38,745 bases of DNA from Kiritimatiellia bacterium (GTDB lineage Bacteria > Verrucomicrobiota > Kiritimatiellia > RFP12 > UBA3636). This document shows, in pieces, positions 2,940 to 34,548 of this stretch (its first letter is position 1; each line of letters starts with the position of its first letter). The stretch covers positions 1 through 38,745 of the forward strand of contig JAFPBK010000083.1 in NCBI GenBank assembly GCA_017424105.1. The letters run 5' to 3'. Under the pieces are notes generated by a model. It was not told the DNA's origin. It worked only from the letters and a program-made list of their open reading frames with translations, and did not search any database. The position numbers and the translations under genes were made by a program.

Positions 2940-3077
2940 TTTGCTTATAAATCCTTAATCTACAAAAAATAAGATTTAATTTCATTGTAATTATAAGGGT
3001 TTTGGCTTATTGTGTCAAGTGAATGGCAAAGTTACCTGCTCCAAATTGGCTTTAAATTCATGAATGAAATACCAAAT

Positions 3078-9661: not shown

Positions 9662-10849
9662 CTAACGGACCTTTAGAATTAACAATAAAAGCATTGGCAT
9701 CAATATTATCTGGATAATCATAAATCTGATTACCACCTGAACAATGCTCCAACCCTTTTCCTTACGGAAGTGGTCATGCACAGGGCAACGGAAGATAAAT
9801 GCAAGTGCATGATACCAAGGAAGTGCTTTAAATTCTTCCTGAGTTGTTGGCACCTTCTTAACCCCCTTACCAATCTTTTTCAGACCTTTAAGATAGATAA
9901 TTTTCAACAAGCCACAAATTCCATCAAAAAGAACTACTGGCATGATAGCAAAAATAATAAAAGGATTTCCTGTTGCCATTATTGCAACACCCATAAGCAT
10001 TCCAAGTCCGCGAGAACCTGCATCACCCATCAAAACTGCACTAGGAGCCGCATTATACCAAAGATAAGCCAATGTTGCGCCAGTGAAAGTAGATGTCAAA
10101 ATTGCCCAATAAGCTCCATTTGGATTGTGTGGAACAAGCAAATATGCAGAAACAGTTTCATGACCTACAACGCCATAAAGGAATACAGTCAATATTAGTA
10201 ATGAAACGATTGTCTGAGTACCAAGTAATCCATCAATTCCATCAGAGCAATTTGTTGCATTCAAACTTATAACTATAACAGTAGCTGCAATAATTGTATA
10301 TGTCAACCAATGCACATCAAATGTAACTTTAGTGAATGGAATCCATAATGCCATATTTTGGAATTTGCAAAGAGCTAAACCAGCCAAAATAGAAACAGCT
10401 ATATCTAATACAAGCTTTTTGCCTCTGCCCCATGGCTTTGTTGCCTTATCATCAAAATACCCACAAAGCATTGCAAGATAGATACATCCGACGCATAACC
10501 ACTCACTGCTTAAAAGCATGCTAAAGCCGCGCCATGTAAACTCTCCATTTTCTGCAAAAAACGCCTGATGTGTTGCTGGTAAAATTGGCAAAGCTAAAAT
10601 CAGCACTGGCAAAGACAATAAAAAGAAAATTATTCCAGCACCAGTAGGCTTTCCTTCAGATTGTTTTCCGTCCGGTGTAAGACCTTTACCTCTGTCACGA
10701 GGCAAGCGATTCCACAATTTAGGAAGCAAGAAATAAGTAAGAAGCAATGCCAAAGCTGCACCAATACAAATTAAAACAAGGTGGGAGCCAAACATACGAA
10801 GCGGACCAAGTCCACTAATATTAGAAAGATTCTTTAATAGATATAGCAT
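9662..10849 (-). CDS. mraY: phospho-N-acetylmuramoyl-pentapeptide transferase (GT4/MraY)
   Basis: KPTGAG, GYFDD, NATNCSDGIDGL, LWYNAAPSAVLMGDAGS, PVHDHF; polytopic; start MLYLL chosen. Confidence 0.88.
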   Translation of the reverse strand: MLYLLKNLSNISGLGPLRMFGSHLVLICIGAALALLLTYFLLPKLWNRLPRDRGKGLTPDGKQSEGKPTGAGIIFFLLSLPVLILALPILPATHQAFFAENGEFTWRGFSMLLSSEWLCVGCIYLAMLCGYFDDKATKPWGRGKKLVLDIAVSILAGLALCKFQNMALWIPFTKVTFDVHWLTYTIIAATVIVISLNATNCSDGIDGLLGTQTIVSLLILTVFLYGVVGHETVSAYLLVPHNPNGAYWAILTSTFTGATLAYLWYNAAPSAVLMGDAGSRGLGMLMGVAIMATGNPFIIFAIMPVVLFDGICGLLKIIYLKGLKKIGKGVKKVPTTQEEFKALPWYHALAFIFRCPVHDHFRKEKGWSIVQVVIRFMIIQIILMPMLLLLILKVR

Positions 10850-10939
10850 AACAATATAAAATTGAAATAGTGGAGAATAAAAAAATATATGCAAAATATA
10901 TTTTTAATTTCAAATGCATATATTAAAAAGAGAAAAAAA

Positions 10940-11016
<77 letters not shown>

Positions 11017-11204
11017 GCAAATACGTCTTTATATATTATGGTTTTTTGAAAAATATCTCAAGAAAAAAAATCAACAATTATAAAGAATTCATTGATTTTT
11101 TTGGAAAAGGCAAGCAAAATTTGTGAAAATGCCGTCAAGCGTAGCAGTCTCACCTATAAAAAATCAACAAGTGAGAAAACTGCTCTGCACACAACAAAAA
11201 TGAG

Positions 11205-17225: not shown

Positions 17226-18557
17226 TTAATCTCTTGAAGTTTCAAATTTCTCTGCCCATGGGGAAACATAACCATGATCAGAGCCACTATACCAAGTTGC
17301 CTTTACTGGCACCTGTAATGCATTATATAAAACAGCATTACTACGTGGAGAGCAAGTATAATCACCTAAACCAATTCGATCAAATTCCACAGGAACAGAG
17401 ATGCGCTTTGCATGATTTACAGCATCGTAATAACCAAGAGCATCTACCCAACCAGGATGCCATGAACGCAAAAGCTTATCATTTGTCTGGCTTCCAATAT
17501 CGCAGCACCATACAATACCAATTCGACACTTTGTAACATCATAATCGTGAGCTGCAGCCCATACAGATTGCAAACCGCCTTGACTACCTCCAGCAACTGT
17601 TAAATTTTTACCATCCCATTGAGGCAGACTCTTTACATATTGCAATGCACGAAGCACACGCAATAGCATATCATGAAAATAAGCTGTATCAGGATTACTA
17701 TTCTGATTTGGATCCATAGCATAGCTATGACCATTGCTTCTGATATTCTTATCATACTCTGAATAATATGCATTATCCTTACCTAATTCATAGCCATGTG
17801 CATTGATTTGGAAATATATATCATCTGTAGCATATCCTAGTGGATATTGCTTACTGCAACCATAACCCATAAATTCAACTGTTGCTGACTGAGTACCTGG
17901 CTTAGCATTTGGATCCATCACAATATAACCTGTCACTGGTTGTTTTGTTGGTGAGCTTACCTTTACAGCATAGACACACTTGCCATTCAAATTTGTATTT
18001 ACACAATTTAACTCAGCTTCAACTGGGACATCCTCAAGCTTAGAAATTTCTTTAGCCCAATATGCATCAAAATCTGCGGGCTCTGCTACTGTCTGCTTCA
18101 ACTCAGAAATTGCTGCACCTGCACCCATCATTGCACAAATATCGTACTTATGCTTGCCTCCCCAAAATTGAACAGTGTGCTTTAGGCGAGCTTTTGCTTC
18201 GTTCTCTATATGCGCACGCACATCAACAAAACCAGGAATTGAAATTGATGTTGTATAATCAACTGTTTCTCCAACCTTTATTGGGAAGCGCTTTGTTACA
18301 GAAACACCATCATCTCCGCGGCGGCGCACTACCAAATCAAATTTGTTTGTCACATCACCCTCTTTGCATTGCAAAGTAAAAGAAAATGTCATAGGCTCAT
18401 TAAGAGCAAATTCTACTGCATTTTTATTTGTTTTACCAACAAGTTCAAGAGACTCACTACTCTTTAGTGCCAAAGATTGTTCGTCTGCAAACGAAGAAGT
18501 AGCATTAAAAATAAATGCGCTTAATAATCCAACTGATAAGATTGATTTTTTATTCAT
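17226..18557 (-). CDS. secreted acetylxylan esterase/cephalosporin deacetylase-like (AXE1/CE7-like)
   Basis: Signal peptide from MNKK (RBS AAAGAGGA); EPADFDAYW, GYG, GGSQGG nucleophile, GLGDYTC, DHG. Confidence 0.82.
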   Translation of the reverse strand: MNKKSILSVGLLSAFIFNATSSFADEQSLALKSSESLELVGKTNKNAVEFALNEPMTFSFTLQCKEGDVTNKFDLVVRRRGDDGVSVTKRFPIKVGETVDYTTSISIPGFVDVRAHIENEAKARLKHTVQFWGGKHKYDICAMMGAGAAISELKQTVAEPADFDAYWAKEISKLEDVPVEAELNCVNTNLNGKCVYAVKVSSPTKQPVTGYIVMDPNAKPGTQSATVEFMGYGCSKQYPLGYATDDIYFQINAHGYELGKDNAYYSEYDKNIRSNGHSYAMDPNQNSNPDTAYFHDMLLRVLRALQYVKSLPQWDGKNLTVAGGSQGGLQSVWAAAHDYDVTKCRIGIVWCCDIGSQTNDKLLRSWHPGWVDALGYYDAVNHAKRISVPVEFDRIGLGDYTCSPRSNAVLYNALQVPVKATWYSGSDHGYVSPWAEKFETSRD

Positions 18558-18606
18558 ATTTTCCTCTTTTAAATTTATTATTTTCAAAAATCTTTTTACT
18601 TATTCT

Positions 18607-18957
18607 CTAACCTTGCAACTCAAATGCTGTTGCATCACAGCCATCCATTGCTGCTGGTTTTTCCACATAGACGCGTACCCATCCCACTTTAGGCAGAGCT
18701 TTGATTTCTGTAAAGATATCATAAGCAAAGCTCTCAATTAGTTTATATTCTTTTGATGCAGCAAATTTATTTACTATTTCAAGAGCTAATTCATAATTAA
18801 AAGTGTCATTAAGATCATCACTTGTTAAAGCACGTTCTATACCTAATGGGCTTAGTTCAATATCTACTACAGCAGGGCGAGGAGCTATTCTCTCCTCAGG
18901 ATAGTGCCCTAGTATTAGGTTAACCTTTATCCTTTTTACAAAAATCTTTGCTTCCAT
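18607..18957 (-). CDS. folB: dihydroneopterin aldolase
   Basis: ILGHYPEER, SDDLNDTFNY, LIE, VEKPAA. Confidence 0.9.
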   Translation of the reverse strand: MEAKIFVKRIKVNLILGHYPEERIAPRPAVVDIELSPLGIERALTSDDLNDTFNYELALEIVNKFAASKEYKLIESFAYDIFTEIKALPKVGWVRVYVEKPAAMDGCDATAFELQG

Positions 18958-19042
18958 AAAATCTCACATATATAAATTCATTTTGATTTTTTATAAAATT
19001 ATACACTATGATGTAATCTTTTTCCATAAAAAACCATACCTT

Positions 19043-19500
19043 AGCCTAAATTCGTAGCCGAATTTAGATGAAGCAGCACTGCGGCATATGAAGCATTGCG
19101 AAGCACTATATGCGATGGAATTATTTAAAGTTTCAGCAAGGCGAGGACGCCATGCCGCCCAGTTATTCTGTAAGACGGGGACGTCTTACAGCCCAGTTAA
19201 CGTGTAGGACGGGGACGTCCTACACCCCAGTTAAGCACACACAAAAAAATATTTTACCTAATCTATTCGTTATTCACTATTCACTAATTCTGCGTACTTA
19301 CGCTCCCATACTCAATTATCTTGTGGGCCGCACACGCTAGCGATTGGTAGTTGGCGTTATCTTGGAGCGGCTAGGCGTCGCCCTAGCCTCCAACAACAAG
19401 CGCTGGCGTATCATCCGGAACCACCACGCAAGCCCCCACACAAGCTCAGCGCACCTCAGCGCCCTTTGCGCTCTCTGCGTCCCTTCCCTTCGCACGCTAG
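19043..19500 (+). repeat. dispersed modular multi-hairpin element, copy 1 (type-1 tail)
   Basis: Core 19127-19230 is near-identical to the copies at 25656, 34245 and 38469; leader and tail are shared with copy 4. Confidence 0.92.
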
Positions 19501-19557
19501 CCGTCTTACTTGAATTCTACTGCAATTCAAGGACTAACAGTGCTTGTGCTGCTTAAT

Positions 19558-20439
19558 TTAAATTCTAGGGATTGATGGTGCAGCACCTGCTTTGCTGACA
19601 CAAATTGCAGAAGCACGTGTAGCTAACTGCATTGCTGATTGCACTGTGGCTCCAGATGCAATCTGTGCAAGAAAATATCCTATGAATGTATCGCCTGCTG
19701 CTGTTGTATCAACAGCCACAACCTTCTGTGCAGGCTCAAAATGCTGAGTACCATCAACACCAGCATATACACTGCCACGAGAGCCAAGTGTTAATAAAAT
19801 ATTTGTTGTCGGATAGCTCTGCTTTAGCTTTGCTAATAGTGGCTCATAATCATCGCTGTCACTGGCACCAACTAATTCTGCTGCCTCAACCTCATTAACA
19901 ACCAAAACATCTATTGATTGCAAATCTAATTTACAAATTGATTTATCCATCGGTGCAGGATTAAAAACGACCTTTAACCCCTTCTCTGCTGCAAGAGCAA
20001 TTATCTCAGCGATTGCTGATGTTTCATTCTGCAAAAGCAAATAATCCCCTGGTTCAAAGCCCAAATCTGATATAGCGGCAGCCACATCGCTGGCAGTAAC
20101 ACAACGATTTGCACCACCCTCAATCAAGATGCAATTCTGCCCTTCTGTATTAACCTGAATAATTGCATGGCCTGTAGGTCCATCTACTTGCGTAAGATGA
20201 GAAATTCCAGCACTTTCATTTGCCAAAAAATCAACAAGCCATGTTCCATCTGCACCTACATGTCCGACATGATGTACCGTTGCACCTGCACGTGCTAATG
20301 CAATGCTCTGATTAAGTCCCTTGCCACCAGGATAACGAGCATAGCCAGTAGAAGATAATGTTTCACCTGGCTGCACAAAGTGTGGTACTTGATAAACATA
20401 ATCAATATTCAGAGAACCAACGTTAAGTATCTTTTTCAT
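19558..20439 (-). CDS. rbsK: ribokinase (PfkB family)
   Basis: GSLNID, PGGKGLNQ, NPAP, VNEVE, VDTTAAGDTF. Confidence 0.9.
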   Translation of the reverse strand: MKKILNVGSLNIDYVYQVPHFVQPGETLSSTGYARYPGGKGLNQSIALARAGATVHHVGHVGADGTWLVDFLANESAGISHLTQVDGPTGHAIIQVNTEGQNCILIEGGANRCVTASDVAAAISDLGFEPGDYLLLQNETSAIAEIIALAAEKGLKVVFNPAPMDKSICKLDLQSIDVLVVNEVEAAELVGASDSDDYEPLLAKLKQSYPTTNILLTLGSRGSVYAGVDGTQHFEPAQKVVAVDTTAAGDTFIGYFLAQIASGATVQSAMQLATRASAICVSKAGAAPSIPRI

Positions 20440-24231: not shown

Positions 24232-25334
24232 CGCATCACCCTACCAGAAGCATTGCCATTCATAAGAGAAGTTACCTCGCTAACAGAAACGCGGTTATAA
24301 TCACCATAAATTGAATGCTTTAAGCAGCTTGCTGCAACAGCAAATGCGAGGGCTTTTTGTGGCTCAGAATACTCTGTTGTATTCAGTGCATAAATCAAGC
24401 CAGCAGAGAAAGAGTCGCCACCACCAATTCTATCAAGAATATTTTCAATTCTGTATGAGCAATAGCTGCCATCTGGAGCAAGCGGTGCTAGGTATGATTT
24501 TGCTTCAGCAACATCATATAGCATTGCGCCCCAATTATTGTGATCAGCAGAATAGCTTTCACGTAGAGTGATAGCAATCTTAGATGCTTTAGGGAAGCGA
24601 GCTGCCAAAGCCTGAGCAACCTCTGTATAAGCTGCAATATTTAGCTGACCTGCCTCAACAGAAGTACCGCTTGCTGAAATACCAAACACATCAGAAGCAT
24701 CCTCTTCATTACCTACAATCACATCTACATAAGGAACAATCTGTCCCATGCATTCAGCTGCAAGAGCCTTTGGAGCAGTACCCTCACGCCACTTCCAAAG
24801 CTTTTTGCGGAAGTTCAAATCGCATGAGATTTTAATACCCTTCTCAGCTGCAAGCTTTGTTATAGCCAAAGTTGATTTGAAAGCAGCCTCTGAAAGAGAT
24901 GGTGTGATACCTGTAATATGTAACCAAGTTACGCCAGCAAGCATTGCTTCAAAGTCATAATCCTCTGGCTCTGCTAATGAAATTGATGAATAAGCGCGAT
25001 CATAAACAACTGATGAACCACGCTGATTTGCACCTGTCTCAGCAAAATAAATACCTAGGCGGCCTTTAGATGTTTTAAGGATTTTTGTGGTATCAACGCC
25101 TAGTCCACGCATTTCGCATAGCATTGCATCAACAATAGCATTTGAAGGGAGTGCTGTGAGGTATCTAGTTTGCAAACCAAACTGAGCAATACTTGCACAA
25201 ACATTTGCTTCACCGCCACCGAAAATAGCTTGTAGAGTTCCTGGCATAGCCTGAGCAAAGCGTAGGCTACCAGACGGAGATAAACGAAGCATTACTTCAC
25301 CAAAACCAGCAATACAAATTGGAGCTTTATCCAT
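24228..25334 (-). CDS. kdgK: 2-dehydro-3-deoxygluconokinase-like PfkB sugar kinase
   Basis: FGEVMLRLSP, GGGEANV, YDR, HITGITP, DLNFR.KLW, DRIGGGDSF. Confidence 0.85.
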   Translation of the reverse strand: MDKAPICIAGFGEVMLRLSPSGSLRFAQAMPGTLQAIFGGGEANVCASIAQFGLQTRYLTALPSNAIVDAMLCEMRGLGVDTTKILKTSKGRLGIYFAETGANQRGSSVVYDRAYSSISLAEPEDYDFEAMLAGVTWLHITGITPSLSEAAFKSTLAITKLAAEKGIKISCDLNFRKKLWKWREGTAPKALAAECMGQIVPYVDVIVGNEEDASDVFGISASGTSVEAGQLNIAAYTEVAQALAARFPKASKIAITLRESYSADHNNWGAMLYDVAEAKSYLAPLAPDGSYCSYRIENILDRIGGGDSFSAGLIYALNTTEYSEPQKALAFAVAASCLKHSIYGDYNRVSVSEVTSLMNGNASGRVMR

Positions 25335-25369
25335 ATGCGATACCTTTCACTGCACTACTACAAAAAAAA

Positions 25370-25461
25370 TGGCGGAGAGGGGGGGATTTGAACCCCCGGT
25401 ACAGAATTAACTGTACGACGAATTAGCAATCCGCTGCCTTCAGCCACTCAGCCACCTCTCC
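25370..25461 (-). tRNA. tRNA-Ser(GCT)
   Basis: Anticodon loop TTGCTAA, long variable arm, GGGGG-TTCAAAT-CCCCC T arm, CCA. Confidence 0.96.
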
Positions 25462-25499
25462 GCAAAGCATAATCTTTTATATGCATTTGATATTTGCGT

Positions 25500-25528
25500 A
25501 TAATACCTTATTATTTGCTCAGATTCAA
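25500..25528 (-). promoter_or_regulatory. sigma70-type promoter of tRNA-Ser(GCT)
   Basis: TTGAAT-17-TATTAT. Confidence 0.6.
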
Positions 25529-25604
25529 GCAAAAAAACACAAATTTCGCTTAATTTTCCTTAAAATGTTGCTTTCCATTTTAAATAAAGCTATTGAAGTT
25601 AGCG

Positions 25605-25984
25605 TGCCTAAGGCATATGAAGCATTGCAAAGCAATATATGTGGTGAGATTAAATAAAGTTTCAGCAAGGCGAGGACGCCATGCTGCCCAGTTATTCTGT
25701 AAGACGGAGACGTCTTACAGCCCAGTTAACGTGTAGGACGGGGACGTCCTACACCCCAGAACTATGCGCTACCTAATACAGGTTAATCCTGAAAAATCAT
25801 CTTGGTGCACAGCCAGGACGACGCCTGGCTGCTCCGAGATAATTGAATCACGAACACCACACATGCACAGCACCTAGCCATCACGCAAACCACCACACGC
25901 ACGCAACATCCGACAAAATCAAAACAAAATTATTGTCATTCCTGTCAAAAAATTCGCACTTTTAGCCATCACGCTTACGTACGC
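25605..25984 (+). repeat. dispersed modular element, copy 2 (type-2 tail)
   Basis: Core 25656-25759; tail shared with copy 3. Confidence 0.92.
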
Positions 25985-25997
25985 AAGACAGCGTGCA

Positions 25998-26939
25998 CTA
26001 GAATGATATTATGTTTTCGCGGTGCATACTATAAAAGCCCGGCGAATATACCTCTGGATCACCTACAACCACATGATCGATTACTGGAATTGACAATTGC
26101 AATCCAGCAGCAACAAGCTCTTTGGTTATCTCTATATCCTTGCGGGATGGACGTGCATCGCCAGAAGGATGATTGTGTGCCAAAATTACTAATGCTGCAG
26201 AATAACGTATTGCCTCACGAAATACCTCGCGAGGATGTACAAGTGACGAATCAAGAGTTCCAGAAGAAATCTCAATCGGCTGCTGTGTGCAGAGTCGGCA
26301 TCGCTTATCTAATGGAAAAACAAAAAAGCTCTCCGTTTGCGATAATGCTTTGATTCGTCTCACCTTTTGCGCGACAAGCTCCGGATCGTCAAATACACTG
26401 CGCTTATCTACATCACCTAGCATGACGCGTCGCGACAACTCAAGCATAGCAGCAAGCTCTATTGCCTTTACCTGCCCTATACCTCCATAGCTTTTGAGCT
26501 CCTCTACTCCGGCATTCATCAGCTGTGGGAGCGAACCAAATGAATCTAACAGTTGGTGAGCAAGCATAAGCACATTCTTTCCTTGCGAACCTGTGCGCAG
26601 CATTATTGCAAGGAGCTCTTCATCTAACAGAGCTTTTGCGCCAAATTTTGCCAAGCGCTCGCGTGGACGAAAATTCTCTGGCAGCGTTGATAGTGCTTGC
26701 GATTTTTCTTGATTGTCATCCACACAATTTTCTACACCATAAACTGCATTTTCTGTAGCATCCGCAACAGTCTTAACAGAACTGGACGCTGCCACAAATG
26801 GTGCTTCTCGTTTAACTAATTGGTGGGATTTTCTTGAATGGGGAGCAATATCACAAATGGATACTTTTTGCTCACAACCATCATACTTTAACCTCAGCTG
26901 GGCCATATTCATTCCAAACCTCCATGATCTTATCTGCAA
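25998..26939 (-). CDS. radC: RadC/JAB domain protein (start uncertain)
   Basis: RPRERL, ELLAIMLRTG, GIGQVKA, VHPREVF, HNHPSGD.RPS..D, DHVV. Confidence 0.92.
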   Translation of the reverse strand: MQIRSWRFGMNMAQLRLKYDGCEQKVSICDIAPHSRKSHQLVKREAPFVAASSSVKTVADATENAVYGVENCVDDNQEKSQALSTLPENFRPRERLAKFGAKALLDEELLAIMLRTGSQGKNVLMLAHQLLDSFGSLPQLMNAGVEELKSYGGIGQVKAIELAAMLELSRRVMLGDVDKRSVFDDPELVAQKVRRIKALSQTESFFVFPLDKRCRLCTQQPIEISSGTLDSSLVHPREVFREAIRYSAALVILAHNHPSGDARPSRKDIEITKELVAAGLQLSIPVIDHVVVGDPEVYSPGFYSMHRENIISF

Positions 26940-27843
26940 CTCTACTTACTTCTATAGCCGTATTGGGCGCTGACACCCATTTTACATTATTCTGATTACG
27001 GAACCACGTACGCTGACGCTTTGCCAGCTGACGAGTTCTTACAATTGTTCGCTCAATTGCTTCCTCTACTGAGCACTTTCCATCAAGAGCATCCTGTGCT
27101 TCTTGATAGCCAATGCCTGAGCCTGCAGTAGAAGAAAAATTCGGATATTGCTCGCGGAGGAGCTTTACTTCATCAAGCAAACCGCCTGTAAACATTTCGC
27201 GGGCACGCTTTTCAATGCGTAATTTTAAGAGCTCTGGCTCCGCCCAGAGTCCTGCAATTGCTGGTTGATTGTTTGCTGTCAGCTTTTCCTCAGAGGCAAG
27301 ATGCGCTGCATAGCTACGCACAGCATCCACTCCTTTTGCTTCAAGCATTTCAATCATACGAATCACGCGGCGAGGATTCTCTTTGTCTGCCATTGCTTCC
27401 AAAACCTCAGGCACAGCAGAAAGACGCTGCCACAAGACCTCAATTCCTCCAGCAGCATATTCTGCATTCAGTTTTGCCCGAAGTTCCTCATTCTCTGCAC
27501 CGGGTGCATCAATACCTTTAAGTAATGCGCTGATATATAAGCCTGTGCCACCAGCAACAATTACACTGCGCCCCTGTGCCTCTGCCTCAGCAAAGGCTGC
27601 TCGTGCTGCATCTAACCATTTTCCTGTGCTAAATGGAGCATCTGGAGCAACTATATCGGCACCACGAAAATCAATTCCAACAAGCTCTTCAGCTGTTGGT
27701 TTTGCTGTGCCTATATTCATTCCTTTATAGACAAGCATGGAATCAGCTGATATGAGTATGCTGCCTGTGCGGCGAGCTAGCTCATTAGCTGTAGCAGTTT
27801 TTCCTGTTGCGGTAGGACCGACTAATATCCATGCTTTTGCCAT
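26881..27843 (-). CDS. miaA: tRNA dimethylallyltransferase
   Basis: GPTATGKT, ADSMLVYKGMNIGTAKP, GGTGLY, NPRRVIR, AKRQRTWF. Confidence 0.96.
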   Translation of the reverse strand: MAKAWILVGPTATGKTATANELARRTGSILISADSMLVYKGMNIGTAKPTAEELVGIDFRGADIVAPDAPFSTGKWLDAARAAFAEAEAQGRSVIVAGGTGLYISALLKGIDAPGAENEELRAKLNAEYAAGGIEVLWQRLSAVPEVLEAMADKENPRRVIRMIEMLEAKGVDAVRSYAAHLASEEKLTANNQPAIAGLWAEPELLKLRIEKRAREMFTGGLLDEVKLLREQYPNFSSTAGSGIGYQEAQDALDGKCSVEEAIERTIVRTRQLAKRQRTWFRNQNNVKWVSAPNTAIEVSRVADKIMEVWNEYGPAEVKV

Positions 27844-30864: not shown

Positions 30865-33800
30865 TTACGAATTTGCCCCGCAGCACTTCTTATATTTTTT
30901 ACCACTTCCACATGGGCAAGGATCATTACGTCCAACTGAAACAGCAGCCTTGACAGGACCACGTGCAGCACCATTCTCTGCTGCTGCGCGAGCTGCTTGT
31001 GCTTTCTCAGCCATTGCAAGAGCCTTGTCAAAAGCATCTGAGCTTACGCTGCTTGCTGCTGGAGCAGAAGTAACACGGCTAGCCTGAGCTGCTCTTGCTG
31101 CCTGCTGATTTACACCAGAAGCTGCAGCTGTTGCTTGAGCTAATACAGAAGCCTGTTCCTCAGGATTATTTGTCTTAACACGGCGTGACATTGCCATACG
31201 TGTCATAAAGCCTTGCATTGCCTCTAGTGAGGTTGCAGAACGGAATGCTGCTGTGCAAACATTAAGCTTAATGCGCTCCATCAAATCGTAGAACATGATT
31301 GAAGCCTCACGCTTATACTCAACTAGAGGATCGCGCTGTGCATAAGAGCGAAGACGTACATCACCGCGCAAATCATCCATTGAACGCAAATATGTTTGCC
31401 ACTCTGTATCAACACTGCGAAGCATTACATAGCGCTCCAAATCCATTAGGCGATCTGGTGTTTCCATTGAGCACTTTAGCTGATATGCTTCCTCAACCAA
31501 ATTCATAATAAACTTAGCTGCTTCCTCTGCCTTACCCTTGAATTGAACAAGATCTGCTTCTGCCAGCGGAATTGGGAATACGCTGTTTGCCCACTCAACA
31601 AGCTCACCTAAACGAGAGTCCTTTTCTGAAATGATAAACTTCTCGCATTGAGTCATGATAATATCATTGAAAATATCAAGAATTAAATCATGAACATTTT
31701 CGCTTGATAGTGCATCTGAACGGAAGCCATAAATCACCTCGCGCTGACGATTCATAACATCATCATATTCAAGTGTACGCTTACGAATTGAGAAGTTACG
31801 CTGCTCAACCTTGCGCTGAGCTGTTTCAATTGAGCGATTCAACAGACCTGCTTGAATTGGCTCGCCTTCCTTATAGCCCATGCGAGCCATCATTCCTGCA
31901 ATGCGGTCAGAACCAAACAGACGCATTAGAGGATCCTCAAGAGAAACGTAGAAACGTGAAGAACCTGGATCACCCTGACGAGCACAGCGACCACGTAGCT
32001 GGCGGTCAATACGGCGAGACTCGTGTCTCTCAGAGCCAATCACACGCAAACCGCAAGGGCGCTCTTCAAGAAGCTCGCGTAATGTCTTTGGATAACCCTG
32101 TGGCTTATCATCAAGACTTGTTTGTGACTGTATCAACTCACGAGGTGTCCAAACGACGCCCTCTCCAAGCTTAATATCAGTACCACGACCAGCCATATTT
32201 GTTGCAATTGTTACTGCTCCTGGCTGACCTGCAAGTGCAACAATCTCTGCCTCGCGTGCATGGTTCTTTGCATTCAACACATTGTGTGGAATACCAGCCT
32301 GCTTGAATAAGCGAGAAAGAATTTCTGATGTTTCAACTGCAACAGTACCAAGAAGCACTGGCTGCCCATTTCTATGACACTCCTTTACCTCGTCAATAAT
32401 TGCATTGAATTTCTCACGCTGTGTGCGATACATCAAGTCATTGCTGTCAACACGACGAATTGGGCGATTTGTTGGAATTACAACCACATCAAGGCGATAA
32501 ATCTCATTAAATTCTGAAGCTTCTGTTTCTGCTGTACCTGTCATACCAGCAAGCTTCTTATACATACGGAAGTAGTTCTGAATTGTAATTGTTGCAAGAG
32601 TCTGAGTCTCGCGCTCAATCTTTACGCCTTCCTTAGCTTCAACTGCTTGGTGAAGACCATCTGACCAACGGCGGCCTGGAAGGATACGTCCTGTAAATTC
32701 ATCAACGATAAGAACCTTGTTGTCCATAACAACATAATCTGTATCCTTTTCGTACAAGCAATAAGCCTTTAGAAGCTGGTCAATTGTATGGATACGCTCG
32801 CTTCTCTCTGCAAAATCTGCTTGAGCTGCCTGACGCTTCATCTGGCGCTCTTCATTTGACAAGCCTTCTGCATCAATTGCTGACATAATTGCAACAATAT
32901 CAGGAAGCACGAACATTTCATGATCTGCAGGATTTAATTCTGTGCAACCATTATCTGTCAAAATTGCTTCACGAGTACGCTCATCAATTGTGAAGTATAG
33001 CTCCTCTCTGAATCTGCGGGAGTCTTCCTTATGCATCTCTGTAAGCATCATGTTCTCAACATCCTCATGAAGCTTACGGATAGATGGCTCTTCAAACATC
33101 TGTAGCAAGCGAGGGTGCTTTGGCATTGCATGATAAATCTGATACATATACTTCAAAGAAGCATCACGATTCTCTTCCTTGATTGCTGCTTCAACCTTTG
33201 TAAATAACTGATCTACCAGCTGTAGCTGCTTACGATACAAGCGCTCAACCTTTGGCTGCAATAAAGAGTACTGCTGATTTGTTTGAGGTGCAGGACCAGA
33301 AATAATAAGTGGTGTACGAGCCTCATCAATAAGAATTGAGTCCACCTCGTCGATAATAGCAAAGCTATATCCACGCTGTACTTGCTCCTGAGCAGAGGTT
33401 GCCATACCATTATCACGCAAATAGTCAAAACCGAACTCAGAGTTTGTTCCATAAGTAACATCACAAGCATATTGCTCGCGGCGCTGCATTGGATTCATTG
33501 TATTTTGAATACAACCAACTGTCAGACCAAGCCACTTAAATACCTGACCAACCCACTGAGAGTCACGTAATGCCAAATAATCGTTAACAGTAACAAGATG
33601 AACATTATTTCCTGTAAGTGCATTTAGGTACAAAGGAAGTGTTGCAACAAGTGTTTTACCTTCACCAGTCTGCATTTCTGCAATCTTACCTTGGTGTAGA
33701 ACAATACCACCCATTAGCTGAACGTCAAATGGCACCATTTCCCATCTTAGAGTATGACCGCAAACCTCGTATTCATTACCGCACATTCTGCGACAAGCAT

Positions 33801-34011
33801 TCTTTACGACAGCAAATGCCTCACACATAATGTCATCAAGAGTTTCACCATTCTTTAGACGCTCTTTAAATTCAGGTGTCTTTGCACGTAGTTCATCATC
33901 TGAAAGTGATTTATACTGCTCATCAAAGCGATTGATAGCCTCTACATATGGACGCAATTTCTTTACATCGCGAGCACGCTTTGTTCCAAAAATTTTAGCA
34001 AAAAGATTCAT
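30865..34011 (-). CDS. secA: preprotein translocase ATPase SecA
   Basis: MQTGEGKT, VTVNDYLA, DEVDSILIDEARTPLIISG, TNMAGRGTDI, RQGDPG, SEC-C GRNDPCPCGSGKKYKKCC. Confidence 0.99.
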   Translation of the reverse strand: MNLFAKIFGTKRARDVKKLRPYVEAINRFDEQYKSLSDDELRAKTPEFKERLKNGETLDDIMCEAFAVVKNACRRMCGNEYEVCGHTLRWEMVPFDVQLMGGIVLHQGKIAEMQTGEGKTLVATLPLYLNALTGNNVHLVTVNDYLALRDSQWVGQVFKWLGLTVGCIQNTMNPMQRREQYACDVTYGTNSEFGFDYLRDNGMATSAQEQVQRGYSFAIIDEVDSILIDEARTPLIISGPAPQTNQQYSLLQPKVERLYRKQLQLVDQLFTKVEAAIKEENRDASLKYMYQIYHAMPKHPRLLQMFEEPSIRKLHEDVENMMLTEMHKEDSRRFREELYFTIDERTREAILTDNGCTELNPADHEMFVLPDIVAIMSAIDAEGLSNEERQMKRQAAQADFAERSERIHTIDQLLKAYCLYEKDTDYVVMDNKVLIVDEFTGRILPGRRWSDGLHQAVEAKEGVKIERETQTLATITIQNYFRMYKKLAGMTGTAETEASEFNEIYRLDVVVIPTNRPIRRVDSNDLMYRTQREKFNAIIDEVKECHRNGQPVLLGTVAVETSEILSRLFKQAGIPHNVLNAKNHAREAEIVALAGQPGAVTIATNMAGRGTDIKLGEGVVWTPRELIQSQTSLDDKPQGYPKTLRELLEERPCGLRVIGSERHESRRIDRQLRGRCARQGDPGSSRFYVSLEDPLMRLFGSDRIAGMMARMGYKEGEPIQAGLLNRSIETAQRKVEQRNFSIRKRTLEYDDVMNRQREVIYGFRSDALSSENVHDLILDIFNDIIMTQCEKFIISEKDSRLGELVEWANSVFPIPLAEADLVQFKGKAEEAAKFIMNLVEEAYQLKCSMETPDRLMDLERYVMLRSVDTEWQTYLRSMDDLRGDVRLRSYAQRDPLVEYKREASIMFYDLMERIKLNVCTAAFRSATSLEAMQGFMTRMAMSRRVKTNNPEEQASVLAQATAAASGVNQQAARAAQASRVTSAPAASSVSSDAFDKALAMAEKAQAARAAAENGAARGPVKAAVSVGRNDPCPCGSGKKYKKCCGANS

Positions 34012-34088
34012 TTTTATTCCTTAAAATCAAATATATAAATTTGGCATAAAAAATGCCAAAAAACTTTCATCACGAATTAAACATATAA

Positions 34089-34117
34089 ATATTAACAAAT
34101 TGTTAAAATAAAAGCAA
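34089..34117 (-). promoter_or_regulatory. putative sigma70 promoter of secA
   Basis: TTGCTT-17-TAATAT. Confidence 0.45.
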
Positions 34118-34186
34118 TTATTTATATGTGAAAGAACCCCTAAAAAACACATAATTTCGGCTATTTTTTGATAGCTCATTGACAAA

Positions 34187-34548
34187 ATGAAGCAACGCGA
34201 ACGCTATGAAGCGATATAGCGCAATTTATGCGATGGAATTATTTAAAGTTTCAGCAAGGCGAGGACGCCATGCCGCCCAGTTATTCTGTAAGACGGGACG
34301 TCTTACAGCCCAGTTAACGTGTAGGACGGGGACGTCCTACACCCCAGAAAAACCGCGATAGCCAATACACGTTAATCCTGAGAAATCATCTTGGTGCACA
34401 GCCAGGGCGACGCCTGGCTGCTCCGAGATAATTGAATCATGCACACCACGCGCACACAGCACCTAGCCACCACACTCACGCAGCACCTAGAAATCCTGCC
34501 ATCCTGCGCAATCCCGTAATCCTGCGTCCCTTCCCTTCGCACTTTTAG
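34187..34548 (+). repeat. dispersed modular element, copy 3 (type-2 tail)
   Basis: Core 34245-34347; tail like copy 2; CTGCGTCCCTTCCCTTCGCAC shared with copy 1. Confidence 0.92.

Follow-up and report, generated by a model that had tools for sequence, protein, structure and literature searches.

Head-to-Tail Hairpin Triplets in a Gut Kiritimatiellia Bacterium: Probable REP-Like DNA Repeats and a Candidate Y1-DprA-Like Nuclease

Introduction

A stretch of 38,745 nucleotides (nt) from a Kiritimatiellia bacterium, hereafter the window (contig C50, JAFPBK010000083.1, of assembly GCA_017424105.1, named G000 here), carries three consecutive 24-nt hairpins at positions 19134-19233, each followed by CCCAGTTA and repeating with a period of 34 nt. 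This locus raises the question of what such a triplet is, and whether it is recognized as DNA or as RNA. The reading favored here, with a probability of roughly 0.55, is that the hairpins are DNA repeats similar to repetitive extragenic palindromic (REP) sequences and to bacterial interspersed mosaic elements (BIMEs), arranged in a fixed head-to-tail A-B-C module with a constant 10-nt linker and probably handled as single-stranded DNA (ssDNA) by a Y1-DprA-like enzyme. The assembly under study has 141 contigs and 1,778,250 bases, with 40.1% G+C and 78.6% completeness, and it is compared below with four congeners (G001-G004), G003 being the closest one.

The Hairpin Triplet and Its Copies

The triplet in the window is composed of the following parts:

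19134-19157, plus strand: hairpin A, CAGCAAGGCG-AGGA-CGCCATGCCG (62 class A copies in the assembly)
19158-19167, plus strand: linker and foot, CCCAGTTA followed by TT
19168-19191, plus strand: hairpin B, CTGTAAGACG-GGGA-CGTCTTACAG, a perfect 10-bp stem (78 class B copies)
19192-19201, plus strand: linker, CCCAGTTA followed by AC
19202-19225, plus strand: hairpin C, GTGTAGGACG-GGGA-CGTCCTACAC, a perfect 10-bp stem with GTAG and CTAC within it (74 class C copies)
19226-19233, plus strand: third foot, CCCAGTTA

Three hairpins, each followed by CCCAG(TTA), had been described in an initial annotation of this DNA, and they are present as claimed, the 8-bp core given there for hairpin A being located at 19136-19155. 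The complete stem of hairpin A also has an A.A mismatch at pair 6, which had gone unmentioned, and an A.C mismatch at pair 2. Hairpins B and C differ by two-sided changes only at pair 1 (C-G to G-C) and pair 6 (A-T to G-C), exactly the two fully compensatory changes previously proposed. When folded as ssDNA, a 116-nt stretch forms the three hairpins on either strand (z of -6.85 and -6.74), and none of 200 shuffled sequences is as stable. The foot CCCAGTTA occurs ten times in the window, always on the plus strand, compared to 0.59 occurrences expected, with none of 100 shuffles reaching ten. These copies fall in four arrays (19158, 25687, 34276 and 38500), the remaining three arrays corresponding to further triplets:

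25663-25764, plus strand: second A-B-C triplet, with the loop GAGA in B, and C followed by CCCAGAAC
34252-34347, plus strand: third triplet, with a 3-nt loop GGA in B, and C followed by CCCAGAAA
38476-38577, plus strand: fourth triplet, with one uncompensated change in B (...ACAA)

The assembly was scanned for the consensuses of four hairpin classes, allowing up to 3 mismatches and without using the foot, resulting in 234 hairpins: 62 of class A, 20 of class a (GTGCAGCACG-RGGA-CGTACTGCAC), 78 of class B and 74 of class C, with 185 of them identical to their class consensus. CCCAG directly follows 224 of these hairpins, and the full CCCAGTTA follows 201. They are grouped into 98 clusters, the commonest being ABC (46), aBC (13), AB (8) and single C (8), so that ordered triplets of A or a, then B, then C make up 59 of the 98. 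Neighboring units are spaced by 34 nt in 135 of 136 pairs, and all units of an array share the same orientation. A fifth unit, D, has a shorter-looking loop, GTGCAAGACG-(A)GA-CGGCGTGCAC, followed by CCCAGAG, and is often located 3' of C. A profile built from 79 distinct CCCAG units (nhmmer against the assembly, E up to 10) adds 21 places, all of them degenerate copies or D-type units. A CRISPR-like array is rejected because there are no unique spacers.

Covariation, Loop and Foot

Across the four classes, two-sided changes that keep the pairing are present at five of the ten stem pairs. In an alignment of ten units (8 distinct), 93.8% of the cells are paired across classes, compared to 79.1% in shuffled alignments, where none of 500 shuffles reaches the observed value, and sliding the partner column by 1-3 positions leaves 15-45% paired, with zero or one two-sided pair. 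The fold is selected between classes. However, as there are only four lineages, this covariation represents a handful of events. The initial annotation had argued that selection acts on both fold and foot, which agrees with the conservation of CCCAG and with the pairing between classes, but not with the changes observed within classes, as can be seen below.

Regarding the loop, the GAGA variant is confirmed in the B copy at 25697-25720, whereas the proposed conservation of a GNRA loop does not hold, since AGGA (105 copies) is about as frequent as GGGA (116 copies), with 13 copies having other loops. The conserved loop feature is RGGA, found in 221 of the 234 hairpins. The hairpins had also been considered to lack GTAG, the canonical foot of REP sequences. 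This is correct for classes B, a and A, which have GTAA, GCAG and GCAA at positions 3-6 of the 5' arm, but class C bears GTAG there and CTAC in the same stem. As these tetranucleotides are paired and the invariant flank is the 3' CCCAG, class C alone would fit a GT[AG]G foot, and in a double-foot manner. The different stems of neighboring units make sense, as identical neighbors could mispair with each other or be deleted; Di Nocera et al. argue similarly for REP "heterodimers" (PMC3733652).

The Mosaic Element and Its Genomic Position

The triplet belongs to a longer repeat. When positions 18901-19620 are compared with the assembly by BLAST, there is one match per base outside the element and 21-90 matches per base within about 19043-19495, the triplet being the top plateau with 83-90 copies per base. 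In general, the element is made of a left-end hairpin (CTAAATTCG-N4-CGAATTTAG), ATGAAGC mini-hairpins, the triplet, a TATTCAC word module and GC-rich modules that include a second hairpin type. Besides the triplet, the window shows the following features:

19042-19500, plus strand: the whole mosaic repeat element of about 460 nt, with separable modules (self-BLAST, and a k-mer block at 19042-19495)
19046-19067, plus strand: left-end hairpin, CTAAATTCG-TAGC-CGAATTTAG, with 59 BLAST copies, which starts many full elements
19068-19118, plus strand: array of mini-hairpins led by ATGAAGC, whose 5-bp stems differ from unit to unit
19255-19290, plus strand: module of the short words TATTCAC/TATTCGT, with about 60 copies
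19357-19388, plus strand: hairpin of a second family, with the foot TTATCTTGGAG located 5' of GGCTAGG-CGTCGC-CCTAGCC

The ends of the element are unlike each other, and it has no terminal inverted repeats. The mini-hairpins are found upstream of most arrays genome-wide, with stems that vary yet stay paired (AGCGC/GCGCT, GGTGC/GCACC, ATGCC/GGCAT, ATTGC/GCAAT), and the pattern ATGAAGC-N12-15-ATGAAGC has 216 occurrences in G000 and 43 in G003. Repeat-rich blocks, defined by 13-mers recurring at least 8 times, total 51,972 bases, equivalent to 2.9% of the assembly.

Outside open reading frames (ORFs) of at least 120 amino acids (aa) lie 78 of 82 arrays. Considering the 45 arrays having such an ORF on both sides, 15 are located between convergent ORFs and 4 between divergent ones, while those between two co-directional ORFs are divided into 14 in the sense and 12 in the antisense direction. 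The repeats are therefore high-copy, dispersed, mostly extragenic and located 3' of genes, as REP sequences are, and their 24-nt hairpins are within the range of 20-40-nt imperfect palindromes forming a stem-loop; their preference for gene 3' ends is also REP-like. Since no orientation bias to genes is observed, a strand-specific RNA role tied to host transcripts is unlikely. Array orientation may be associated with GC skew (Fisher p 0.008), but the skew itself follows the gene strand (rho 0.86) and arrays on the same contig are not independent; with gene-strand bias, the corresponding p is 0.29.

Candidate Nuclease and a Second Hairpin Family

The assembly has one match to the Y1_Tnp family, an ORF of 377 aa on the minus strand of contig C36 (G000:C36:3055-4185), with a score of 34.6 bits for Pfam Y1_Tnp (cut-off 23) and of 49.9 bits for NCBIfam REP_Tyr_transpos, the latter below the cut-off of 80. 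The protein bears the motifs NHVH, WQ and YVENNP. As described by Quentin et al. (2018, Table 1, PMC6006769), Y---NP is the signature of class 2 (TnpA-REP-like) and the combination of YIxNNP, WQ and NH[IFV]H that of subclass 2.4. In its AlphaFold model (predicted local distance difference test, pLDDT, of 73, with both domains well above 80), the N-terminal half matches ISDra2 TnpA, IS608 TnpA and the TnpA-REP of Escherichia coli (4ER8; E 6e-6, root-mean-square deviation of 2.5 Å over 140 columns). The C-terminal part matches DprA (3UQZ; Foldseek, E 8e-3), and a structure search in the Atlas also names DprA for residues 265-377 (L001:880-2013). The enzyme is then predicted to be a Y1 HUH domain similar to those of REP-associated tyrosine transposases (RAYTs), fused to a DprA-like domain, an architecture for which no description was found in the consulted parts of the literature, including those of Quentin et al. 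(2018, PMC6006769). By sequence, the PDB gives no match for the single protein and marginal, non-significant matches to ISDra2 TnpA for the family profile (E about 0.06). Relatives of the protein amount to 812 at E up to 1e-3, some of them labeled RayT by the Joint Genome Institute (JGI). As in a REPtron, this is a single-copy Y1 HUH gene with the HuH and Y motifs and the TnpA fold.

A possible cognate RAYT had been mentioned in the initial annotation. A RAYT-like gene does exist, but the units flanking it and inside it belong to an ATCTCGGRG family, related to the CCCAG hairpins yet distinct from them. On the strand with the foot in 5' position, these gene-linked units are TT(T/A)TCTCGGGGTGC-GGGGGCGTCGTCCCCC-GC. 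One hairpin is located just 3' of the stop codon (C36:~2952-3042) and is kept in the orthologs of G004 and G001, which are 95-98% identical, whereas the second copy is inverted and in frame inside the gene (C36:3429-3530, with foot copies), encoding RGTTPPHPEK and followed by three 24-nt foot copies that encode 8-residue repeats. The in-gene copy falls in a linker left disordered by the model (residues 216-274), and both hairpins bracket the part coding for the DprA-like domain. Among the features described for subclass 2.4 are a tnpA-REP gene with a REP inserted in frame and "double-foot" REPs (PMC6006769). The latter find a parallel in the GTAG and CTAC of class C and in the true double-footed copies (CTGGGG...CCCCAG) of G001 and G004.

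The dispersed units of this second family have the foot TTATCTCGGRG, TTATCTCGGAG, a stem and the apex GGCGTCGYCC, with 55 copies in G000 and none in G003. The mosaic contains this family as one of its modules, and, taking the foot as the element on the 5' side, the copy at 19357-19388 of the window has the opposite orientation to the A-B-C units. The feet of both families form a graded series: AACTGGGG, AACTCTGGGG, ATCTCTGGGG (unit D), ATCTCGGGG (gene flank) and ATCTCGGAG. An element of the IS200/IS605 type, or a derivative lacking its protein, was also considered and rejected, as no TnpB-type domain was found in the assembly, its one Y1 gene is located outside any repeat element and the ends of the element are unlike.

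Points Against a REP-Type System

Several observations weigh against the REP-like reading. REP sequences normally occur in inverted pairs and not head-to-tail (PMC2817692; PMC3733652). Within classes (225 units), 39 single changes break a Watson-Crick pair, some of them in B/C hybrids, while 4 changes give a G-T pair, 2 are compensated doubles and 1 is a double giving G-T. As only 2 compensated changes stand beside 39 uncompensated ones, the high copy number is no evidence of ongoing selection on the fold; either the copies arose too recently for selection to be tested, or broken pairs are not restored. The collection of units throughout the genome, as envisaged in the initial annotation, shows a conserved foot, together with covariation between four old classes copied as a block and stem changes without compensation inside them.

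The enzyme and the hairpins are also distributed differently. Homologs of the enzyme are present in 22 of 31 related genomes, whereas the hairpins are limited to the genus; G001 and G004 have orthologs that are 95-98% identical, yet they bear 2 and 7 hairpins, and in G003, with 8-9 hairpins, only a 44% identical paralog of the enzyme is found. No CCCAG hairpin occurs in the flanks of the RAYT-like gene, contrary to a REPtron, where the gene is flanked by the same family. In addition, the CCCAG-unit profile, even at E up to 10, misses both the ATCTCGGRG family and the gene flank, so that the kinship of the two families is based on short motifs and layout. Given this, and as hairpin numbers do not follow the presence of orthologs, the link between enzyme and hairpins is regarded as no more than plausible. 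Finally, the congener comparisons recovered no clean empty site, target duplication or element end.

Distribution, Possible Recombination and Genome Dynamics

Element modules are present in all four congeners and in none of 26 genomes from 18 other genera of the same family and order, and the family thus appears to be restricted to one genus of animal-gut Kiritimatiellae. The hairpin followed by CCCAG is found 2, 1, 8 and 7 times in G001-G004 (0 for a control with the reversed pattern), and the same regular expression gives 172 matches in G000 compared to 9 in the nearly complete G003. Therefore, the family is old in the genus and expanded in the species of G000. Between congeners, whose genes show 3-30% DNA divergence, the classes do not differ by a single letter, which points to constraint, recent exchange or both. 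Only one further contig from the species-representative genomes has the B-C junction, and no viral contig has it. A pattern with two feet matches at least 117 loci in metagenome contigs, but among the matches listed only 2 are real arrays and the rest are chance matches, thus providing no larger sample for covariation. In contigs of three independent gut DNA metagenomes, each flank of the window is joined to the repeat edge, where the contig then ends, and none bridges the element. These joins indicate that the element is no artefact of one assembly.

The neighborhood of the arrays differs between close relatives. At an orthologous locus with flanks 95-98% identical, G000 has aBC and the start of the next module, whereas G003 has 32 unrelated bases, and the other modules also differ. 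For the synteny analysis, unique flanks 300-1300 nt from each block were placed in G003, with the following result:

Hairpin-bearing blocks (47): syntenic 1; both flanks inside contigs but not adjacent 30; contig end 4; no match 12
Repeat-free intergenic sites (450): syntenic 228; not adjacent 112; contig end 28; no match 82

The contrast between syntenic and not adjacent has a Fisher p of 8e-13, although both genomes are short-read metagenome-assembled genomes (MAGs), where a 460-nt repeat present about 80 times favors misjoins, and the sites lack independence. Real rearrangement and misjoins are indistinguishable here, so the result may partly reflect the latter. Among the individual arrays of the window, array 2 has its join confirmed through synteny: G001 and G004 keep both flanks, separated by unrelated AT-rich spacers of 94 and 290 nt that have diverged too far for the ends to be located. 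No congener supports the join at array 3, where similarity to G003 is lost some 100 nt short of the element and the right flank is found elsewhere. In the search for an empty site of array 1, the left flank was not syntenic in any congener, and when G000 and G003 were compared genome-wide, a single hairpin-bearing block proved syntenic and no clean insertion emerged.

These differences could be expected if the units were recombination sites or substrates acting as duplex DNA, like the dRS3 of neisserial mosaics, with the fold being irrelevant, an explanation considered unlikely. The 10-4-10 inverted repeat would then bind a recombinase or serve homologous recombination, as would be consistent with the loss of synteny at arrays and with modules shuffled between congeners, even at an orthologous locus. 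The same applies to the hybrid hairpins, whose 5' and 3' arms come from different classes (B/C in at least 4 copies of G000; a/C and C/a in congeners), to the two tyrosine recombinase genes of the assembly, one of them adjoining an array, and to the comparable properties of the intergenic mosaic elements of Neisseria (NIMEs; PMC1797815). However, four half-site sequences with kept pairing fit the recognition of a fold better than that of fixed half-sites by one dimeric protein, and the conserved mismatches in A and a make the duplex sites asymmetric. The hybrids show crossover or slippage in the shared core ACG-RGGA-CGT, by which they are explained, no IS110-type gene was found in the assembly, and part of the synteny result may come from misjoins at repeats in short-read MAGs.

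The recombinase gene beside an array is located on contig C129 of G000 (10100-10651) and ends about 50 nt before a triplet-bearing mosaic element (10700-11098). With roughly one gene in eight estimated to border an array, this adjacency may be due to chance. Both recombinases have the size expected of Xer proteins, which they may be.

The DNA identity to G003 is uneven in the window, ranging from 84 to 97% between neighboring genes at 24300-27000 and 32800-34150, which suggests recombination between the two species.

The Hairpins as Possible Passengers

A quite unlikely alternative is that the hairpins have no recognition role and are carried, as a tandem duplication, in an element of some transposase, similar to miniature inverted-repeat transposable elements (MITEs), with their uniformity resulting from recent copying. 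The large share of exact consensus copies, the uncompensated changes within classes, the fact that the triplet always travels with other modules and the expansion specific to G000 would all be compatible with this. Nevertheless, recent copying does not account for the same four classes being letter-identical in congeners with divergent genes, nor for class differences that keep the pairing or for a CCCAG foot kept beside different neighboring modules. Moreover, the element lacks terminal inverted repeats, and the search of three families yielded no further transposase candidate, in an assembly that is 78.6% complete.

Possible Action as RNA

The possibility that the triplet works as RNA, with GGA-loop hairpins binding a protein in the manner of a CsrA sponge, or stabilizing or punctuating mRNA, is very unlikely. 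Several GGA-loop hairpins in a row are the layout of CsrA-binding small RNAs (sRNAs), and both the RGGA loops and the location of arrays 3' of genes could be read in this way. In addition, contigs of one RNA run (a metatranscriptome) hold short repeat pieces, which is weak evidence because they are contigs with no strand information and a possible DNA origin. Meanwhile, CsrA (PF02599) is found in none of the 31 genomes of the group, 18 of them at least 90% complete, and arrays face both directions relative to transcription, with the loop of the other strand being TCCY; a CsrA-binding sRNA was therefore rejected. The scan of 18500-20000 against Rfam gave no match at E up to 1, and that of 18900-19620 for intrinsic terminators found no terminator-like site on either strand. 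Thus, where the initial annotation left open a protein-recognized ssDNA or RNA structure, the first option is probably right in kind, as a DNA hairpin of the REP type, and the second one is unlikely.

Proposed Mechanism of the REP-Like Repeats

According to the REP-like reading, a single unit of hairpin and foot would have been duplicated in tandem with a 34-nt period, and its copies would then have diverged by changes that keep the pairs, so that each one folds alone. The triplet may subsequently have spread, within the mosaic of about 460 nt, to about 60-80 intergenic sites in this species. When the DNA becomes single-stranded, for instance at a replication fork, the stem-loop and its invariant flank (CCCAG on the 3' side of the plus strand, or CTGGG on the 5' side of the other strand) would offer the type of substrate that is bound and cut by the Y1 HUH nucleases RAYT/TnpA-REP, the single RAYT-like Y1-DprA-like protein being the candidate enzyme. 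Homologous recombination among the many copies could then shuffle modules and genome segments.

A stronger form of this proposal is possible but doubtful. It assumes a REP lineage that left the plan of GTAG and inverted pairs in favor of ordered head-to-tail triplets, having "orthogonal" stems that diverged by compensatory changes and fold independently, and a CTGGG/CCCAG flank read by the Y1 HUH nuclease with its DprA-like ssDNA-binding domain, and whose burst in one species redrew the gene order.

Comparison with Known Systems

REP/RAYT systems have been described mostly in Proteobacteria, Cyanobacteria and Bacteroidetes, and none of the articles listed in the literature searches combines Kiritimatiellae with REP terms. 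The repeats described here resemble the REPs of TnpA-Y1 subclass 2.4: they are short and imperfect palindromes, numbering in the hundreds and mostly located outside genes, on their 3' side, several sequence variants coexist in one genome, and the single-copy Y1 HUH gene bears NHVH, WQ and Y---NP, with YVENNP nearest to YIxNNP (PMC6006769). Besides these similarities, the invariant element is CCCAG(TTA) on the 3' side of the stem instead of a 5' GT[AG]G, the units are head-to-tail in a fixed order of three with a 34-nt period, and the enzyme gene is flanked by another hairpin family. Also, the enzyme has about 377 aa with a DprA-like C-terminal domain, compared to a median of 194 aa in the subclass (PMC6006769).

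The BIMEs of E. coli, which combine Y, Z1 and Z2 REPs in mosaics, are similar in their ordered REP variants, conserved linkers and many intergenic sites. However, their REPs alternate in orientation (PMC2817692), while here the units point in the same direction and are part of a longer mosaic of unrelated modules, which separates them from BIMEs. For the same reason of direction they are not REPINs, which consist of two inverted REPs forming one larger hairpin. Regarding the GTAG- and CGTC-tagged REP super-families (Di Nocera et al., 2013), the unpaired tail 3' of the stem is shared, being CCA there and CCCAG here, as well as the neighboring units with different stems and the position between convergent or co-directional genes. 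The dimers of those families are head-to-head or tail-to-tail, head-to-tail CGTC dimers being negligible, and in the present hairpins CGTC is located at the stem apex, not as an unpaired end tag (PMC3733652).

In the NIMEs, short inverted-repeat units separate many families of repeat modules of 50-150 nt (Bentley et al., 2007, PMC1797815), and the arrays, which differ between close relatives, are linked to recombination. The likeness is in architecture only, as dRS3 is ATTCCCN8GGGAAT (PMC1797815), no phage or IS110-type recombinase was found here, and the units are tandem 24-nt hairpins without modules between them. Altogether, the unusual features of the present family are the fixed-order head-to-tail triplet with its linker, the CCCAG-type flank, the long mosaic, the species-specific burst and the Y1-DprA-like enzyme.

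Here, a gut bacterium of the Planctomycetes-Verrucomicrobia-Chlamydiae (PVC) group carries REP-like repeats whose invariant flank is different and whose triplets have a fixed head-to-tail order, and this species and its sister species differ roughly twenty-fold in copy number. If the enzyme link is true, the four natural stems on one flank, with their loop and foot variants, would serve as clean substrates to find out which features are read by a RAYT-type nuclease. If the gene-order association is confirmed on long-read genomes, such repeats would shape genome structure in uncultured gut bacteria. For annotation purposes, the hairpins should not be labeled as riboswitch-like RNAs or CRISPR-like arrays.

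Neighboring Genes and Other Modules

The triplet region is flanked by two minus-strand ORFs, 18607-18957 and 19558-20439. A promoter-like site (TGGAAA-17-TATAAT, minus strand, 18998-19026) lies in the gap separating the element's left end from the beginning of the first ORF, which accordingly need not depend on read-through across the repeat.

On contig C28 of G000 (~500-600), a native-looking hairpin of terminator type, GGGGCTGTTGCAAA...TTTGCAACAGCCCC, is directly followed by CCCAGTTA and the TATTCAC module, suggesting that the foot, with the modules downstream, may join an unrelated hairpin. Five congener loci (L012, L014, L015, L017 and L022) and several contigs of G000 bear a long palindromic module with GGGGACA-type 8-mers on both arms, loosely recalling GGGGWSAS, a motif in the inverted repeats on either side of TIRYT genes (PMC3733652). 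Palindromic modules made of TAGACG-type words are also found in the congeners.

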